Assembly (NCBI GenBank): GCA_963697355.1
Contig: CAVONV010000002.1
Span: 56,372-120,371, forward strand
Direction: 5' to 3'
DNA from: an uncultured Acidobacteriota bacterium
GTDB lineage: Bacteria > Acidobacteriota > Vicinamibacteria > Marinacidobacterales > DATDRI01
DNA length: 64,000 bases
Made by a program: the position numbers and the translations under genes. The notes under the pieces are model-generated. The model saw nothing but the letters and a program-made list of their open reading frames with translations. It made no database searches and was not told the origin of the DNA. This document shows, piece by piece, positions 6,008-63,218 of the stretch. The first letter of the stretch is position 1. Each line of letters begins with the position of its first letter.

Positions 6008-6078
6008 TATAGCACAGGGGCAACGGTCAAGCCCGCCTTCGTTGACGGTCCCGATTCACTGTCGCCGACTTCAACGCG

Positions 6079-6222
6079 TCAGTCGACGGGCTGCCTGTCA
6101 TCAGACTCGACGGGGAGCTGAGTTTGGTGACTACTCGAATAGCCGCGGAAAGGGCTGATCCACTGCGCTAGTTGAAGGAGAAGAGCCCCAACGAGAACGA
6201 CGAGAACGATAAATGTGCGCAT
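6079..6222 (-). CDS. Small hypothetical membrane peptide (47 aa), not in the ORF track
   Basis: AAGGAGG lies 5 nt upstream of the ATG (complement of 6220-6222). Translation MRTFIVLVVLVGALLLQLAQWISPFRGYSSSHQTQLPVESDDRQPVD has one TM helix plus an acidic tail. The stop is the complement of 6079-6081. Confidence 0.35.
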   Translation of the reverse strand: MRTFIVLVVLVGALLLQLAQWISPFRGYSSSHQTQLPVESDDRQPVD

Positions 6223-7995: not shown

Positions 7996-8040
7996 GATTC
8001 TTGAGTACTTGGGTACTCGAGTTCTCGAGTACCTACCGTG
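7996..8040. repeat. Degenerate GAGTTCTT-type tandem repeat with a small palindrome between convergent genes
   Basis: tgagattcttgagtacttgggtactcgagttctcgagtacc contains the hairpin GAGTAC ttgg GTACTC and octamer-like units shared with sites at 18.5, 25.2, 50.7 and 55.8 kb. Confidence 0.4.
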
Positions 8041-18471: not shown

Positions 18472-18526
18472 GGTAACTGAGTTCTCGGGTTCTTGAGTTC
18501 TGGTTTCTCGAGTTCTTGAGTTCTTC
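18472..18526. repeat. Tandem degenerate octamer (GTTCTTGA)n, about 6 units
   Basis: gttctcgg gttcttga gttctggt ttctcga gttcttga gttcttcc. The same motif recurs at 7996, 25101, 25231, 50661 and 55820. Confidence 0.5.
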
Positions 18527-23394: not shown

Positions 23395-24180
23395 ATGGGG
23401 GTTAGTATGATGTACTCGTTTTGGAGGCGACGAATTGATGCGGGCCGGGCCCTCACGAGATATCGGGGCGCCCCTTGGCTAGAAGACAAACGAGTGTTCA
23501 GAAGAGCCGCAATATTGAGCGCAGTCCTTGCTTTGGGGCCCATGGGACATCAAGGGAGTCGAGCGATGGAAGAAGAACCGACGATCCGCACCATCGAGCT
23601 CCAAGGGTGCATGCTTCACACTCTCGTTGCCGGCCCGGCCGACGGCTTTCCTGTATTGCTGCTTCACGGTCGACGGTTTCATTCCGGAACCTGGCTCGAG
23701 ATAGCGACTTATGGAACACTGGCCAGTCAGGGATACCGCGTCGTGGGCGTCGACCTTCCAGGCTACGGCCGCTCAGAGAAGAGCGAGGTTCCGTGGGACC
23801 GATTCCTCGCGGAGCTCATTCCCGAGCTCGGCATGGGCAAACCGGTCATCGTCGCACCTTCGATGAGCGGTGGTTATGCGTTTGCGCTCTTGATGGAACA
23901 CCCCGAATTTGCTTCGGGCTTTGTTGGCGTGGCGCCCGCCTGGGCCAAAGATCACGAAAGCGGGATTCAGAACATCAAAGTACCGACGCTCCTCCTCTGG
24001 GGTGAGAACGACACCATTTCGCCAGTGTCCTTGGGCGAGAAATTGATGGGCTTGATCGAGGGCAGCCGGTTGGTGGTCCTAGACGGTGCAAGTCATCCTT
24101 GCTATCTCGATCGTCCGGACGAGTTTCACCAAACCCTGCTCGAGTTTTTGGAAACCATTCGCTCCGCGAACAAGCGATAG
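23395..24180 (+). CDS. Alpha/beta hydrolase
   Basis: LLLHGRRFHSGTW and the GxSxG nucleophile elbow PSMSGGYAF. Start could instead be ATG 23566. Confidence 0.75.
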   Translation: MGVSMMYSFWRRRIDAGRALTRYRGAPWLEDKRVFRRAAILSAVLALGPMGHQGSRAMEEEPTIRTIELQGCMLHTLVAGPADGFPVLLLHGRRFHSGTWLEIATYGTLASQGYRVVGVDLPGYGRSEKSEVPWDRFLAELIPELGMGKPVIVAPSMSGGYAFALLMEHPEFASGFVGVAPAWAKDHESGIQNIKVPTLLLWGENDTISPVSLGEKLMGLIEGSRLVVLDGASHPCYLDRPDEFHQTLLEFLETIRSANKR

Positions 24181-24210
24181 AAGACTAGAGGGCTGTCCCC
24201 TTAGTCTTTT
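24181..24210. terminator. Hairpin plus short T-run between convergent genes
   Basis: aagacta-gagggctgtcccct-tagtctt followed by tt. It overlaps the UbiA-like stop and shares the GGCTGTCCCC motif with 12913-12926. Confidence 0.35.
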
Positions 24211-25100: not shown

Positions 25101-25290
25101 AACTGCCTCTTATCAAGAACTCAAGCCCGCCTCCGTCGGTGATGCCGATTCGTCGCCACCGACTTCGGCGAGGCCTCGCCGAAGCCGTTGGTTCGCAATC
25201 TCGAGCACCAACGGCGGAGGCGGGAATTCAAGAACTCAAGAACTCAAGAATTCAAGAACTCGAGAGTCGAGAGATTGTAGCGATCTTGCG
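25101..25290. repeat. Composite imperfect palindrome containing CTTCGGCGAGGCCTCGCCGAAG and four CAAGAACT octamers
   Basis: It lies in the divergent promoter region between the UbiA-like gene and galK. The core hairpin is the 22-bp perfect palindrome cttcggcgagg/cctcgccgaag. It is homologous to segments at 55951-56000 and 56205-56225. Confidence 0.5.
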
Positions 25291-44384: not shown

Positions 44385-44879
44385 TTGAGTACAATCAAAA
44401 TTCACACCTTGGAGTCGATGAAGGACGAACGGGAGAGACTTCGTGAGACAGGGCTGAATCTGGTCTTCACCAACGGCTGCTTCGATCTTCTTCACCCAGG
44501 GCACGTCCGTTACCTCAAGGAAGCCCGTCAGCTCGGAGATCGACTTATTGTAGCTGTCAATCGAGATGAGACCGTGGCTAAGCTCAAAGGAAAGGAGCGG
44601 CCATTGGTTCCGATAGCGGAGCGAATGGAGGTCCTCTCGGCTCTCGTGATGGTCGACTACGTCATTCCCTTCGAGGAGGAAACGCCGGCGCGGGTCATAC
44701 AAGAGCTGGTACCGGATGTCCTCGTCAAGGGTGGAGACTGGCCTATCGATCAGATCGTGGGTAGGGACATCGTCGAAGCCGCCGGGGGCCGTGTGATATC
44801 CCTCCCGTTTGCCAAAGGTTACTCGACCACTGGATTGATTGATCAGATCGTGGAACGACTCGGTGGCACCAGAAATTGA
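44385..44879 (+). CDS. Cytidylyltransferase-fold nucleotidyltransferase of the RfaE/HldE domain II type (heptose-1-phosphate adenylyltransferase-like)
   Basis: [16 protein letters not shown]...RDETV; 164 aa. Confidence 0.75.
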
Positions 44880-47800
44880 TCGCCTTGCTCTCGCGCGCAA
44901 GTTGGAAGAGGCCGGACTCGACCGGATAACCGAACGACTCACCGCCGGGGAGGGTCGCTTTCAGCTCACGGGTCTCATGGGACCCGCGCGCTCACTTGCC
45001 CAAGCGGTACTGATTTCTCGATCGGCGGGGCCGGTTCTGTTCGTCGTTTCGGACGAGCGAAGAGTGGCCGAGGCGGTATCCGACCTGAGTGCCTTCCTCC
45101 ACTCGTGGGGCATCGACAAGAAGCTATTCAATTTCCCGGCGCTCGAAGTCGATCCGTACCGTGGTCTTTCGCCTCATTTCAACGTCGTCTCGGCCCGTGC
45201 CCGAGCGCTCACGGCTCTCATCGAGGAAGACTCGCCGGTCATCGTGGCACCGGTACCGGCTCTTCTCTACCGGACGGCCTCGCCGTCCGTTTTTTCCGAG
45301 GGAATCGTCAATCTTCGTCGCAGAGCCATTTTCGAGCCGGGCGAGCTGGAGCGAAGGCTTCTAGAAGCCGGCTATATCCATGAAGATCCCGTGATGTCGC
45401 CGGGCGATTTCGCTCGTCGCGGAGGGATTCTCGATGTGTATCCTCCAGATGCTCGAGAGCCCTTTCGGCTGGAATTCGTGGGTGAGGAGATCGAAGAGAT
45501 CCGTACGTTTGGTCCCGAGACGCAACGTACGACGGGCTCTTTGGATGGGGTCCGCATCTGTCCTGCCCGAGAGTGGCCTTTCAATGATTCCCATCGCGAA
45601 GAGCTCTTGGTGCGGTTGAGGGAAAAAGGCGTAGCGAGCGAGTTGAAAGCCAACATTGAGAAAGGAAGTTTCCCGCCGGGCATCAACTTTGCGCTGCCCG
45701 AGCTCGACGATTTCAAGAGCACGTTCTTCGACTACGTCGGCAAGGGAATCGTGTTGATAGAAGAACCGGTGGAAGTCTTTCGATGTGCATCAGCAGAATG
45801 GGAACGTGTCCTCGATAGCTACGGAGAGGTACCCAGGCGAGCTGGAATCGCCCAACCCGAACCGGCCATGCTCCTTCTTTCTCCGGACGAGCTTTCGTCG
45901 CGCTTGGCGGAGCGATCGGTAAGCTTCCAGGAAATGGACATCGTGGAGAGCCTCCCAACTGAGGATGTGGAGTCCAGCCAAAGGGTCCATCTATCGAGTC
46001 AGCTCCTACCGGTGTTTCGTGGGAACATCAAGGATTTCGTCGACGAGATCCGAAGGCAAAAGGGGGCGCTCCGACAAGTCCATATTTTCGTTGGCCATCG
46101 CGGTCTCGCCGAACGACTGATCGAGATCCTCCAAGAATCTGATATGTCGGCGGGATTGACGGACGATGGGCCGGTAGAAGCAGGCACGGTGGCGTTGCAC
46201 CTCGGCGACCTCTCCCACGGCTTTGCTCTTCCCGAGCTCGGCCAAGCCGTTTTTTCCGGCCGAGATCTCTTTAGTGAGCCGCCGCGATCCGAGAAACGTC
46301 GTGCCCATAAACTGGGTCGCTTTCTTTCCGATTTTCGTGATTTGAAGCTGGGGGATTACGTGGTCCATGTCGATCATGGCATTGGCGTCTTCACGGGCCT
46401 CACGCAGGTGTCCGGGAACGGCGATAATGCTGAGTTCGTTCTCCTCGAGTACATGGGCGGCGACAAACTCTACGTACCCGTGGAGAAGCTTGATCTGCTC
46501 GAAAAGTACTCGAGCTCAGAGAGTGCGAAGCCCAAACTCGATAAGCTCGGAGGTACGGGGTGGGAAAGGGTCAAAAAACGCGTCCGCAAGTCCATGCGCG
46601 ACATGACCCAGGAGCTCCTCCAACTCTATGCGGCTCGAAAAGCCATCCCCGGGCACGCTTTCTCAGCGGATACGCATTGGCAGGCCGAGTTCGAGGACTT
46701 GTTCGAGCACGAGGAGACAGGCGACCAGTTTCAAGCCATCGATGAAGTCAAGCGAGATCTCGAAGCGACCTTTCCGATGGATAGGCTTTTGTGTGGTGAC
46801 GTCGGCTACGGCAAGACGGAAGTGGCGATGCGGGCCGCCTTCAAGGTCGTCATGGATGGAAAACAGGTGGCTGTCTTGGTGCCCACCACGGTACTGGCAT
46901 TCCAACACTACAACACCTTCAAGGCCCGTTTTGCTCCTTTCCCAGTTCACGTCGAAATGTTGTCACGTTTCAAGACTCCCAAAGAGCAAAAAGTGATCGT
47001 GAAGGGGGCGTCGGAAGGGACGATCGACATCCTCATCGGAACCCATCGCCTGCTATCCAAGGACGTCGAGTTCCATGATCTCGGACTCTTGGTTGTTGAT
47101 GAAGAGCAGCGGTTCGGGGTGAGTCACAAAGAGCGCGTCAAGAAGATGCGCCGCCGAGTGGATTGCTTGACGATGACCGCGACTCCGATACCACGAACGC
47201 TCAACATGTCCCTATCGGGCGTCCGGGATCTTTCCGTCATCGAAACGCCTCCTAAAGATCGGATGGCGATCCAAACCTATATCACGCACATCGACGAGAA
47301 AGTTCTTGCGAAAGCCATGCGATATGAGCTCGGTCGTGGGGGGCAGGTGTACTTCGTCCACAATCGGGTGGGGTCGATCTACTCGATGGCTTCTTTTCTC
47401 CAACGACTCGTGCCCGAGGCGCGCATTGTCGTGGCGCACGGACAGATGAAGGAGTCCGAGCTCGAGACGGCCATGCTCCGCTTCATAGGTCGCGAGTTCG
47501 ATGTCCTCGTGAGCACCACGATCATCGAGAATGGTCTGGACATCCCCCTCGTCAATACACTCATCGTCAACCGAGCCGATCGCTTTGGGCTCTCTCAGCT
47601 ATACCAGTTACGCGGACGTGTCGGCCGGTCGAGTCGCCGCGCCTATGCCTACTTGCTCGTGCCCGATCGAAAACAGCTTACTCCCGTTGCAAGAAGGCGC
47701 TTGGCGGCGATCAGGGAGTTCAGTGACCTCGGTGCTGGTTTCCGTATCGCGGCTTTGGATCTCGAGCTGCGCGGCGCCGGCAATTTGCTGGGCGGTGAGC

Positions 47801-48354
47801 AACACGGGCACATCGAAGCTGTCGGTTTTGACATGTACGTCAAGCTCCTCGAGGAGACGGTGCGTGAGCTCTCAGGAGAAGAGGATGCTGACGTCGCCCG
47901 TGCAACCTTGAGCCTCAGGATCGATCTTCGGATTCCCGAGGCATTCATTCCGGATCCTAACCAGCGGATGTCGGTCTACAAGCGGGCGTCTTCCGCTCGA
48001 GATCATACAACTCTCGAGGGGTTGGCGGCGGAGATCCGGGACCGGTACGGTCCCCTTCCGACACCCTTACTGCAGCTTCTAGAGTACGCGCGTCTACGGT
48101 TGTTGGCCGAAAAGGTAAGGGTCGTTTCAATTGAGCGAGAAGCCGGTCTTCTCGCCTTCCGTTTCGATCCGTCCTCGCCGGTGGACCCGGCCCGGCTGGT
48201 CCAGCTGGCAGAACGCGTCGCTGGAGCTCAACTGACGCCGGGAGGCCTGTTGAAGTTTCGTTTGGCGGGTTACGAAGTCCCGGAGCTCCTCTCGACAGTC
48301 AGGGAGGTTTTGCTAGAGCTCAATCCCTACTCTATGATGGCGGAGAGGACGTGA
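44839..48354 (+). CDS. mfd: Transcription-repair coupling factor
   Basis: CarD-like/TRCF domains and DEAD-box helicase motifs [25 protein letters not shown] and QLRGRVGR. The start is ambiguous (ATG 44839 overlapping upstream, or TTG 44902). Confidence 0.9.
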
Positions 48355-50449: not shown

Positions 50450-50750
50450 GGCGCTCCATGGTCAGAAGCCAGTAGGCAGCCAGTAGAAGTGACCAGAGGT
50501 CAGTGGGCGGTAGGCGGTGGACAGTGAAGAAAGAGGCCAGGGAACAGTGGCCAGTGAAGAAGAAAGTAGGCGGTAGGCCGTCCGCCTATTCAAGCTTAGG
50601 GCGGACCCGCCGACCGCCTTCGCATGAGCTTCGGCGAGGCCTTGACGTAGCTTGGGCGAAGGCGGGCTCGAGTTCTTGAGTTCTTCGCCGGAGAGGTTCC
50701 AACTTTGACTGCTTGACTGCCCAGTAAGGACATACAACAATCCGAAACGA
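50450..50750. repeat. Mosaic intergenic repeat block L (CTGG-unit tandems, a 43-nt core, a palindromic hairpin and octamer modules)
   Basis: The 43-nt core 50583-50625 is 42/43 identical in inverse orientation to 56005-56047. Flanking modules are also shared in the same inverse order. Confidence 0.55.
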
Positions 50751-52052: not shown

Positions 52053-52139
52053 AATCCTCGGTGGCATTCGACATGAAATAGTAGCAACAAGCTAGGACAC
52101 ATCTTCACCGTTCGCTGTCTGCCGCCTACGGGCTCCTGC

Positions 52140-52330
52140 TTCACTGTCTACTGCCGACAGTCCCAATAGCTTCTTCTTCACTTCCAACTAACTTGCCGCG
52201 GGCAGGGGCAAGGGCACGGGCACGGGGCATCCGCACGAAGTTAGTCTCTGACGCGGCGGACGTCCTGACCGTGCAGATGCTGGTCACTGGCTGCTGTTTA
52301 CTGATTCTGGTGACTACTCTTCAGTCCATC
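52140..52330. repeat. Two-copy element: G-tract run plus conserved hairpin (copy 1)
   Basis: gcggggcaggggcaagggcacgggcacgggg (5 G-tracts), then the hairpin catccgcacg / cgtgcagatg. It is about 85% identical over about 130 bp to 62120-62260. Confidence 0.5.
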
Positions 52331-55789: not shown

Positions 55790-56330
55790 ACCGTCAAACA
55801 GTCAAAGTTAGGACTCCTCCGGCGAAGAACTCAAGGACTCGAGAAGACAGTGATTCGACCACTATGTCGACTGGATTTGTGCCCTTGACTGACCCAACTG
55901 GTCACTGTGAACCCGCCTTCGCTCATTGCGTCACGCTGTTGGCTTCCGCCTCCGTCGGCGGCGCCGATTCTTGCCACCGACCTTGGCGAGACTCGCCGAA
56001 GCGAATGCGAAGGCGGTCGGCGGGTCCGCGCTAAGCTTGAATAGGCGGACTGCCCACTGCCCACCGCCCACCGCCTACTTTCTTCTTCACTGGTAACTGG
56101 TCACTGGCTTCTGGCCTCTCTTCTTTTGCTGGTCACCCGCCTTCGCCGCCAAGTCTTATCATCGGCGGCTACCGCCTCCGTCGCTGAATCGATCGATGGG
56201 CCAGCGACTTCGGCGAGTCTCGCGGTAGCTCCGCAAGGGAGTCGGTCGAGACGGAGCGTAGGCGGACTGGTCACTGATCACTTCTACTGTCTGCCTACTG
56301 GCTTCTTTCCACTAACGGCGTATACTTGTG
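55790..56330. repeat. Mosaic intergenic repeat block R (internally duplicated unit of about 220 bp), inverted relative to block L
   Basis: Unit A is 55900-56125 and unit B is 56129-56330. They share cgccttcgc..ccgcctccgtcg..cttcggcgag.ctcgc..taggcggactg..cactg..ctggcttct. There is no ORF with coding-like composition. Confidence 0.55.
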
Positions 56331-62099: not shown

Positions 62100-62279
62100 A
62101 AAAAAGTCTCACGTGACTGGCAACTGTTCGCTCTTCCAACTAACTAGCCTATGGCAGGGGCAAGGAGCAAGGGATCGGGCAGGGGCACGGGGCATCCGCA
62201 CGAAATTAGTCTCCGATGCAGTGGACGTCCCGGCCGTGCGGATGCTGATAACTGCTCACTGGCTCCTGGCCTCTTCTCC
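62100..62279. repeat. Two-copy G-tract plus hairpin element (copy 2)
   Basis: ggcaggggcaaggagcaagggatcgggcaggggcacgggg, then the perfect hairpin gcatccgcacg / cgtgcggatgc at 62192-62202 and 62235-62245. Confidence 0.5.
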
Positions 62280-63218
62280 TTACTGCGTTGCTTTCCGCAT
62301 ACGCCGGGCCAGTTCCGCGTAGACATAGATAAGGGCAAGGCCTCGGTAGGGGCGCCAGCGCTCCGCGAACTCTCGCATGCTCTCCTCTCGGGCCGGCGCC
62401 TCGTATCCCAACATCTCCTTTGCAAAGTACTTCAGCACTCCTAGATCACCGGCAGGAAACACATCGAGGCGAGATAAACCTCGTAGGAGTGTAAACTCCG
62501 CCGTCCATCTTCCGACTCCCTTGAAAGAAGTCAAGAGCTCGATGAGCTCCTCGTCGGGCATGCTCACAAGCTTTGCTTCTGACAAATCACCAGCGAGAAA
62601 AGTCTTGGCAAGTCGGCTGAGCGTTTCAGACTTGCTCTGGCTCAAGCGAAAGGAGCGGAGCTCTTCTATGGTCATCTTTGCCACCCGGGCCGGCGAGGGG
62701 AAATTGTAATGGAGCTTACCGTCGAAACGAGCCCTCCGTCCTAGTACGGTCGCCAGAGCACAAAGGATGCTGTGGGCAAACTTCAAGTTGATTTGCTGTG
62801 AGATGACGATCTGGATCAGGGTTTCCCAGACTGTGGCTCGTCCAACCACGCGCAATCCCCGATATTTCTTGATAAGGGGACCGAGAAGCGGATCGTTGCC
62901 GAACTTACGATAGAACGGGCGCACATCCGAACGGATCCTAAAGACATTGTCTAGAACGCCCTGTACAACGTGCTTTGCCTCTGTCGTTTTAGCGCGTGCT
63001 CCCGAGATGGTGACCTCGAGAAGGGCTCGAGATGGTGCCCCGCGCTCGGTGACCTCGACCAGATGAGGGTGGTGACCTACGAACACGAGGCGCCGGTAGA
63101 GATCGTCCTCGAAGCAGTCCACGACTTCCGGAAACGCCGCTATGCGCGCTGCCGTAAGGGCCAGAGAATAGGGTCGTTCTGGTACTAACGCGTAACGAGC
63201 ACATTCTCTAGACATCAA
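62280..63218 (-). CDS. alkA: DNA-3-methyladenine glycosylase II (HhH-GPD)
   Basis: LTSFKGVGRWTAEFTLLRGLSRLDVFPAGDLGV. The HhH-GPD motif includes the catalytic Asp. Confidence 0.8.
   Translation of the reverse strand: MMSRECARYALVPERPYSLALTAARIAAFPEVVDCFEDDLYRRLVFVGHHPHLVEVTERGAPSRALLEVTISGARAKTTEAKHVVQGVLDNVFRIRSDVRPFYRKFGNDPLLGPLIKKYRGLRVVGRATVWETLIQIVISQQINLKFAHSILCALATVLGRRARFDGKLHYNFPSPARVAKMTIEELRSFRLSQSKSETLSRLAKTFLAGDLSEAKLVSMPDEELIELLTSFKGVGRWTAEFTLLRGLSRLDVFPAGDLGVLKYFAKEMLGYEAPAREESMREFAERWRPYRGLALIYVYAELARRMRKATQ

Follow-up and report, generated by a model that had tools for sequence, protein, structure and literature searches.

We found that two short sequences in the 64,000-nt stretch of an uncultured Acidobacteriota genome analysed here (contig CAVONV010000002.1, positions 56,372 to 120,371; hereafter the window) are members of a lineage-restricted, dispersed and modular family of intergenic repeats that was previously undescribed. 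Both copies of the element lie on the + strand (copy 1, 52181–52289; copy 2, 62133–62254), and each is built of a 17-nt block (the A block), a run of G3–4 tracts that are mostly GGGCAN hexamers, an 11-bp inverted repeat and flanks with a 7-nt period. Counting window and metagenome copies, the family comprises at least 16 loci. From the sequence comparisons and genomic contexts described below, we estimate a probability of about 0.6 that the element is a mosaic repeat resembling the BOX elements and the bacterial interspersed mosaic elements (BIMEs). The family is new, but it is of a familiar class of small dispersed mosaic repeats.

The two window copies are 83% identical over 88 ungapped nt and ~86% identical in the hairpin module, and the G-rich part of copy 2 is longer than that of copy 1 by 13 nt. 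The A block of both reads CTTCCAACTAACT(T/A)GCC. The inverted repeat, GCATCCGCACG / CGTGC(A/G)GATGC, gives 11 bp and a closing G.U pair with arms 32 nt apart in both copies; the stem of copy 2 is perfect, and that of copy 1 has a single C.A mismatch on the + strand that corresponds to G.U on the − strand. No third site was present in the window when it was searched with 16-mer and 25-mer core patterns (shuffled sequences are expected to give 0.67 and 0.00 matches), and a covariance model built on the hairpin module and run unfiltered, a search proposed in a preliminary description of this DNA, scored high only for copy 2 (93.5 bits) and copy 1 (88.7 bits), with the next match at 14.9 bits. By Pfam annotation, copy 1 lies between Dus(+) and Peptidase_M14(−), and copy 2 between AcrB/CzcA-type(+) and AlkA/HhH-GPD(−), both of which are convergent pairs; this agrees with the placement between dusB/M14 and czcA/alkA in the preliminary description. 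That description was likewise correct that two copies exist, with extents that proved wider than it gave, and that each has a hairpin of 10–11 bp, perfect in copy 2 and with one mismatch in copy 1. Its claim of at least five consecutive G3–4 tracts per copy holds in that each copy has five G3+ tracts, and needs amending in that copy 1 starts with GGG and not with the GGGG that was quoted. The five G3–4 tracts of copy 1 span 52200–52227, and in copy 2 the canonical G3+N1–7 motif is formed by the last four tracts.

A scan of JGI metagenomes with a degenerate DNA pattern recovered 15 loci, 14 of them distinct, and all are true copies with unrelated flanks. The pattern permitted only transitions at “wobble” positions, and variation inside it is unusable for tests of coding or pairing. 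With the pseudo-peptide of the element (...RAGARGIRTKLVSDAVDVPAVRML...) as the query, an initial search found four database “proteins” sharing only that stretch, and an exhaustive search of 1.84 billion protein representatives returned 10 matches in total, all of the open reading frame (ORF) type; ~9 further copies are known only as such spurious ORFs. At least 11 “hypothetical proteins” of 63–272 aa (P0001–P0005, P0126–P0131) are spurious translations of the repeat that share only ...ARGIRTKLVSDA.DV.... No copy was found in 36 kb from L023 and L024, which come from relatives with M14 proteins 76% or 67% identical, a scan of a genome collection with the 19-mer GGGGCATCCGCACGAARTT gave six matches, all by chance and with no similarity past the seed, and a scan of viral contigs gave 0 matches. 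Among named homologues, the M14 protein comes closest to proteins from Acidobacteriota and Vicinamibacterales metagenome-assembled genomes (63–66% identity), which by itself places the lineage only tentatively, as probably related to Acidobacteriota. In a relative with a 90%-identical M14 protein (P0006, JGI 3300042731), the convergent Dus–M14 arrangement is kept with a spacer of 207 nt versus 282 nt here, and the region upstream of M14 contains a PIN/PSK_trans_fac toxin-antitoxin pair and an HNH gene in place of the DUF2784 and efflux operon of the window.

Across the family, the consensus reads heptamer array – A block – (optional GGCAAGGRGYAASGGRTC) – (GGGCAN)n – GGGGCATCCGCACG AAGTTAGTCTCCGATGCGGCGGACGTCCCGGC CGTGCGGATG CTG – heptamer array. 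Elements range from 97 to 152 nt in length, with a hairpin module of 57–64 nt whose ends form a GC-rich inverted repeat of 11–12 bp, and they carry 2–12 G tracts, mostly GGGCAN hexamers whose number differs from copy to copy; such G-hexamer arrays were found nowhere but inside copies of the element. Every copy runs on downstream as CTGRTNA CTG..., and the family flanks have a period of 7 (mean lag-7 autocorrelation of 0.39–0.41 versus 0.18–0.30 at other lags); the upstream flank of copy 1 is tied by BLAST to the heptamer arrays of L015. Four copies (L015, L018, L020, L022) form a type II subfamily with a 7-nt loop insertion, which places the arms 39 nt apart as against 32 nt in type I. Other variation includes a variant A block, ACTGGCTT, in three copies, a degenerate partial second copy adjoining the full one in L020, and a right arm half-deleted in P0129.

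All copies are intergenic. Taking the element as the + strand, convergent 3' ends surround copy 1, copy 2 and its orthologue L013, L016 (rhodanese> <GpsA), L017 (hydrolase> <LemA) and L018 (MCP> <SDR); other copies lie 3' of a − strand gene (L009, AlaRS, then tRNA; L015, PFL; L020, UPF0014; L022, PIN; and L012) or 3' of a + strand gene (L014, RsmB; the P0001 contig). The remaining contexts are 5' regions, namely L010 (<methyltransferase / element / Phd-PIN>, a divergent promoter region) and L021, before an extracytoplasmic function (ECF) sigma gene. Convergent contexts account for 5/9 of those fully resolved (p = 0.02–0.05), and ~17/24 flanks face the 3' end of a gene (p = 0.03), while the orientation of the element relative to genes is not fixed. 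The earlier summary of two copies downstream of operons is thus right in that the copies are mostly downstream of genes, and understated in that there are at least 16 loci, some of them in 5' or divergent positions. At L009, a tRNA gene (59 bits; 1881–1953, + strand) lies ~250 nt from the element, on the strand that also carries the alaS fragment upstream. Loci L010 (466–520) and L011 (1341–1400) have the methyltransferase gene and the element in common and diverge ~40 nt downstream, a structural variant, and past the divergence point L010 carries a Phd/YefM–PIN toxin-antitoxin pair.

Conservation could be measured at L013, the orthologous czcA–element–alkA locus of a relative, which is 87% identical in nucleotides over 2.67 kb. 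Between the copy 2 locus and L013, the hairpin module is 93% identical (55/59) and the A block with the G array 88%, compared with 77% for the spacer upstream of the element and 76.8% and 53.9% for the third codon positions of czcA and alkA, respectively (Fisher tests with czcA third positions as the reference: module, p = 0.003; whole element, p = 0.0004). Differences in length between the two are of whole units, with an extra GGCACG hexamer in L013 and heptamer-type indels of 7, 14 and 20 nt, the downstream heptamer array showing indels of 7 nt and 20 nt. Copy 2 is closer to its orthologue L013 than to its paralogue copy 1, which argues against simple homogenisation within the genome and implies that the element is older than the species split. 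These comparisons suggest that either purifying selection or conversion towards the family consensus preserves the module; judged by the same sequences, a recent burst does not explain its conservation.

The preliminary description took the mismatch in copy 1 and the perfect stem of copy 2 as a sign of selection on structure, a proposal that comparison across the family does not support. Across 14 aligned copies stem pairing reaches 98.7%, none of the 19 pairs examined has changed on both sides, and the covariation score is the same as in all 500 shuffles, in a sample that is too uniform for a covariation test at 86% column identity; pairing is high only because the sequence is conserved, without compensatory change. 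Four independent arm substitutions, all transitions, give a wobble pair only on the + strand in L012/L019 and L013 and only on the − strand in copy 1 and L022. This 2:2 split by strand is the neutral 50:50 expectation, so that the copy 1 mismatch is no evidence of structural selection, and the assignment of a strand from wobble pairs, with two events favouring + and two favouring −, was dropped. A further pairing (A:A') joins ACTAACTT to AAGTTAGT just 3' of the left arm; it is 97.3% paired on the + strand, shows no compensatory change and, being interleaved with the 11-bp stem, has the topology of a pseudoknot. RNAalifold, with a consensus energy of −26.7 kcal/mol, predicted an extra 7-bp inner hairpin, one pair of which occurs in C-G, U-G and U-A states as well as mismatches. 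Predicted folding energies of the module were −25.6 to −25.7 kcal/mol for copy 1 (z of −1.7 on + and −2.8 on −) and −26.5 (+) and −25.6 (−) kcal/mol for copy 2 (z of −2.1 and −3.0), and the full-length folds were inconsistent between copies and not significant (z of −0.6 to −1.9).

At the level of motifs, a canonical G-quadruplex (G4) sequence, with at least four G3+ tracts and loops of at most 7 nt, is present in 12/17 copies including both window copies, and the G4 prediction suggested earlier gave a G4Hunter maximum of 1.76 over 25 nt in copy 1. The other five copies (L012, L018, L019, L021, L022) have only 2–3 G tracts, and G4 capacity is thus not universal. The element is real and repeated, with a conserved hairpin-capable module that is joined in most copies to a G4-capable tract. 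Stem pairing and G tracts, whose loss from further copies the preliminary description had named as telling against it, are largely retained (98.7% paired; at least four G3+ tracts in 12/17). Its suggestion of a bidirectional terminator fared less well: the element is not a canonical one, with no U tract after the stem, which is followed by CTGGTCA on the + strand and CCCCGTG on the − strand, and a terminator scan at the element gave only one weak 5-bp match, in the heptamers. The two window intergenic regions, when scanned, contained no U-tract terminator and no promoter-like site; window-wide terminator scans were too unspecific to judge whether the organism uses U-tract terminators. Rfam gave 0 matches in the window at gathering thresholds, and at E ≤ 1 in five loci a tRNA was the sole match.

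If the element is a BOX/BIME-like mosaic repeat, the family would have spread by transposition or recombination, and its copies would survive mainly where insertion is harmless, 3' of genes. Readthrough from the flanking genes would then put the element into their 3' untranslated regions (UTRs), where the stable hairpin (~−26 kcal/mol on either strand) could act in the manner of repetitive extragenic palindromic (REP) sequences, as a barrier to 3' exonucleases and as a partial, factor-dependent stop to readthrough. In + strand transcripts the G-tract array would add to the effect of the hairpin, and in − strand transcripts the array would form a C-rich, G-poor stretch of the kind bound by Rho. 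By this analysis, the element would probably act in a REP-like way in 3' UTRs.

Several points weigh against this explanation. Any RNA-level role of the element rests on inference. There are no terminal inverted repeats, as CTTCCAACTAACTTGCC at the 5' end is not the reverse complement of ...CCGTGCGGATGCTG at the 3' end, and the only inverted repeats in the element are internal (B:B' and A:A'). The flanking heptamers (CTGRTNA) are alike at 4–6 of 7 positions but belong to tandem arrays, and a target-site duplication is not clear. No empty orthologous site was seen among the recovered loci and no transposase associated with the element was found among the large ORFs scanned for domains, so that mobility is not demonstrated. 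A terminator-like element should be costly in the divergent promoter region of L010 and before the ECF sigma gene of L021. Furthermore, the metagenome scan pattern lay inside the hairpin module, and the conservation of that stretch among metagenome copies is therefore partly ascertainment; the source genome was covered by the 64-kb window only, so the window copies give no genomic copy number.

A purely selfish or neutral non-autonomous mobile element, similar to a MITE (miniature inverted-repeat transposable element), with no host function and its 3' positions merely tolerated, is an unlikely but serious candidate, and one that is hard to tell apart from the mosaic-repeat explanation. It fits the dispersed copies in unrelated contexts, the confinement to one lineage, the degenerate partial copy in L020, the half-deleted right arm in P0129 and the different sequences adjoining the element in L010 and L011, and enrichment between convergent genes is an argument that has been used for BOX, RUP and SPRITE as parasites (PMC3049150). 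This candidate is weakened by the orthologous copy, whose conservation clearly exceeds that of third codon positions and of the spacer next to it, and it too has to contend with ends that are not inverted repeats (CTTCCAACTAAC... versus ...CGGATGCTG), the want of a clean target-site duplication or of a transposase with matching ends, and the fact that no filled/empty site pair was recovered. We regard as doubtful the bolder proposal that selection maintains the element as a two-faced module at the 3' ends of convergent genes, in a lineage that seldom uses U-tract terminators, or that it is a pseudoknotted RNA (A:A' + B:B') of a new class. If the two-faced module were real, one direction would present an RNA or non-template-strand G4 array and then the hairpin, the other would present the same hairpin and then a C-rich, G-poor Rho-loading tract, and hexamer number would tune the strength. 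Close to untenable is a small protein in the frame ...RAGARGIRTKLVSDAVDVPAVRML..., for which an ORF is called in several assemblies. Of the differences between the two window copies, the first four are synonymous in this frame, and ten database “proteins” share a 25-residue stretch, but the next five differences are non-synonymous, four consecutive third-position changes are ~7% probable over six frames, and the ORFs overlap the convergent genes. The shared part is only ~25 repeat-derived residues between unrelated N- and C-terminal flanks, starts and stops, and the type II 7-nt insertion and the 13-nt difference in the G array shift the frame; we rejected the protein because of these frame-shifting indels and unrelated ORF flanks.

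It is improbable that the element is a dedicated, fold-dependent structured RNA, whether acting in cis as a regulatory 3'-UTR RNA or produced as a small RNA from many copies, possibly with an H-type pseudoknot. The conserved stem and predicted inner 7-bp hairpin are consistent with such an RNA, as are the three states of one inner pair, the constraint on the module and the A:A' pairing, in which G.U pairs preserve the complementarity of the variants ACTGGCTT and ACTAGCTT of the A block. Set against these, stem pairs changed on both sides are lacking and the score is that of the shuffles, arm substitutions favour neither strand, the Rfam, promoter and intrinsic terminator scans described above gave no match, the orientation to neighbouring genes varies, a large length-variable G array and a 7-nt loop indel would be unusual for a precise fold, and full-length folds are not significant. 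There is no positive sign of a structured RNA other than conservation, and nothing yet shows that the element is one. Also quite improbable is a unit that acts as DNA, either as a protein-binding site or as a G4 or cruciform with effects on replication, transcription or chromosome organisation. The palindrome GGACGTCC, centred in the module, conserved in type I copies and represented by GACGTC in type II, is a candidate site, the canonical G4 motif of 12/17 copies is compatible with this idea, and the hexamer and heptamer tandem units could form a periodic array of binding sites; BIMEs carry sites for integration host factor and gyrase. However, 5/17 copies are without a four-tract G4 motif, the palindrome is broken in L009 (GGACGCCC), there is no known candidate binding protein, and orientation to GC skew is not consistent. 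Across the 14 metagenome loci there was no trend of element orientation with local GC skew (8/14 flanks positive, pooled skew of 0.004), and a replication-polar role, like that of the FtsK orienting polar sequences (KOPS), is thus not supported.

Other candidates were considered and rejected. The element's GGGCAGGG matches GGGNAGGG, the E. coli KOPS consensus, but the octamer total is at chance and orientation ignores GC skew. An integron attC site is not matched, as TTCCAAC, AACTAAC and GTTAGTC each miss R''(RYYYAAC)/R'(GTTRRRY), and the copies are isolated between unrelated housekeeping genes. Neither a DNA-uptake sequence nor a type I toxin fits the sequence. In the window as a whole, GGGNAGGG occurs 12 times on the + strand and once on the − strand, with the total at chance level, and GC skew is positive in every 8-kb segment; this octamer bias and skew indicate that the + strand is probably the leading strand.

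These results add an undescribed repeat family from an uncultured lineage in which conserved modules, linked into mosaics by tandem arrays of 6-, 7- and 8-nt units, are unusually abundant between genes. The repeat also accounts, in annotation, for a set of spurious “hypothetical proteins” of public databases that share ...RAGARGIRTKLVSDAVDVPAVRML.... Should the G-tract array and the hairpin prove to shape mRNA 3' ends, the element would offer a natural G4/hairpin module of the 3' UTR that is tunable in length, useful for studies of termination and RNA decay outside model bacteria.

Other repeats and signals of the window are listed with the parts of the two copies in Table 1. Tandem arrays with 8-nt units occur between genes at a minimum of five sites. 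A ~60-nt module has two near-identical copies, each of which runs into heptamer arrays (ACCGCCTACTTTCTTCTTCACTGG...) like those of the studied element, and constitutes a second mosaic repeat family. A third intergenic module is present in three copies, two of which adjoin octamer arrays or the 60-nt module. Heptamer arrays also stand alone, and a sequence like the A block lies just upstream of an outer-membrane efflux gene. A strong terminator-like hairpin is located inside the Mfd/TRCF ORF (44839–48354), and a small hairpin in the 20-nt gap of the convergent ORFs 23395–24180(+)/24201–25100(−) is a candidate bidirectional terminator, unlike the studied element.

Table 1 Parts of the two element copies and other repeats and signals in the window (TRF, Tandem Repeats Finder)
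Feature	Positions	Strand	Description
Copy 1 upstream flank	52119–52180	+	Degenerate 7-nt tandem units (CTGCTTC ACTGTCT ACTGCCG ... CTTCTTC); lag-7 autocorrelation 0.43 vs 0.10–0.38 at other lags
Copy 1 A block	52181–52197	+	CTTCCAACTAACTTGCC; present in 12/16 family members
Copy 1 A:A' pairing	52187–52194 and 52238–52245	+	ACTAACTT complementary to AAGTTAGT
Copy 1 G-rich hexamer array	52198–52229	+	GGGCAG GGGCAA GGGCAC GGGCAC GGGGCA; TRF period 6, 4.7 copies; 5 G3+ tracts, canonical G4 motif; opposite strand C-rich
Copy 1 hairpin module	52227–52282	+	Arms 52227–52237 and 52270–52280; 32-nt interior with palindrome GGACGTCC
Copy 1 downstream heptamer array	52280–52318	+	CTGGTCA CTGGCTG CTGTTTA CTGATTC ...; lag-7 autocorrelation 0.43
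Copy 2 A block	62133–62149	+	CTTCCAACTAACTAGCC
Copy 2 G-rich array	62153–62194	+	Subblock GGCAAGGAGCAAGGGATC then GGGCAG GGGCAC GGGGCA; canonical G4 motif
Copy 2 hairpin module	62192–62247	+	Arms 62192–62202 and 62235–62245, perfect 11 bp and closing G.U
Copy 2 downstream heptamer array	62245–62285	+	CTGATAA CTGCTCA CTGGCTC CTGGCCT CTTCTCC TTACTGC; lag-7 autocorrelation 0.46
8-nt-unit tandem arrays	8000–8032, 18478–18525, 25224–25265, 50670–50685, 55825–55845		GAGTTCTT / AAGAACTC
~60-nt module, first copy	55990–56048	+	CTCGCCGAAGC..ATGCGAAGGCGGTCGGCGGGTCCGCSCTAAGCTTGAATAGGCGG
~60-nt module, second copy	50575–50635	−	CTCGCCGAAGC..ATGCGAAGGCGGTCGGCGGGTCCGCSCTAAGCTTGAATAGGCGG
Third intergenic module	6027–6080, 25121–25175, 55940–55990		CAAGCCCGCCTYCGTYGRYG..CCGATTC..CGCCRCCGACYTYGGCGAG
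Stand-alone heptamer arrays	56049–56124, 56265–56310, 50470–50560		ACTGCCC, ACTGGTA/ACTGGTC and CCACCGC units
A-block-like sequence	56296–56320		CTTCTTTCCACTAACGG
Terminator-like hairpin	45271–45295	+	CGGACGGCCTCGCCGTCCG then TTTTTT
Small hairpin	24187–24202		GAGGGCTGTCCCCT; T-rich tails on both strands

Among known repeat classes, the flanking arrays recall the cyanobacterial short tandemly repeated repetitive (STRR) sequences, which are intergenic tandem arrays of 7-nt units, STRR1 being CCCCAGT. Some units here (ACTGGTC/ACTGCCC) resemble the STRR1 reverse complement ACTGGGG; the phylum is different, however, and the heptamers here flank and join larger conserved modules, whereas STRR arrays stand alone. 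With MITEs the element shares its size and its dispersed intergenic copies, but the terminal inverted repeats and target-site duplications that define MITEs were not found here. Bacterial MITEs such as Correia/NEMIS and RUP are dispersed intergenic sequences of 100–150 nt that are co-transcribed with their neighbours and have possible effects on mRNA ends (PMC3184786, PMC10969869).

The likeness to REP sequences and BIMEs lies in extragenic, multi-copy, GC-rich palindromes that are often found at 3' ends or between convergent genes, and, for BIMEs, in mosaics of palindromes with other short motifs. REP325 acts as a partly Rho-dependent terminator and as an mRNA stabiliser (bioRxiv 10.64898/2026.03.23.713779). 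A REP is an imperfect palindrome of 20–40 nt with a short loop, whereas the arms here are of 11–12 bp and 32–39 nt apart, and a G-tract array is attached to them. REPs also have a conserved 5' GTAG and are mobilised by REP-associated tyrosine transposases (RAYTs); here there is no GTAG at the foot of the stem (GGGGCATCC...), and no RAYT was seen among the large ORFs scanned, which carried no transposase domain. As the element departs from REPs in palindrome geometry and in having no GTAG, from MITEs in having no terminal inverted repeats and from intrinsic terminators in having no U tract, and matches neither attC nor any Rfam family, our claim is that the element works like such repeats, not that it is a member of any of these classes.

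BOX elements of Streptococcus pneumoniae and S. suis have the arrangement boxA – boxB(n) – boxC, with an array length that varies between strains at one locus, and BOX, RUP and SPRITE are lineage-restricted and over-represented between convergent genes (PMC3049150). The host of the element belongs to another phylum. The consensus sequences are unrelated by eye, so that the likeness is one of analogy only; the repeated unit here is a 6-nt G-rich microsatellite and not the 45-nt boxB, and the element sits in heptamer arrays with no terminal inverted repeats or insertion sequence similarity seen. In its architecture, the element nonetheless parallels BOX, with conserved end modules around a variable-copy tandem array (here A block – (GGGCAN)n – hairpin module) that differs by one unit between copy 2 and L013, stem-loops predicted if transcribed, an occurrence in close relatives only, and enrichment between convergent genes.

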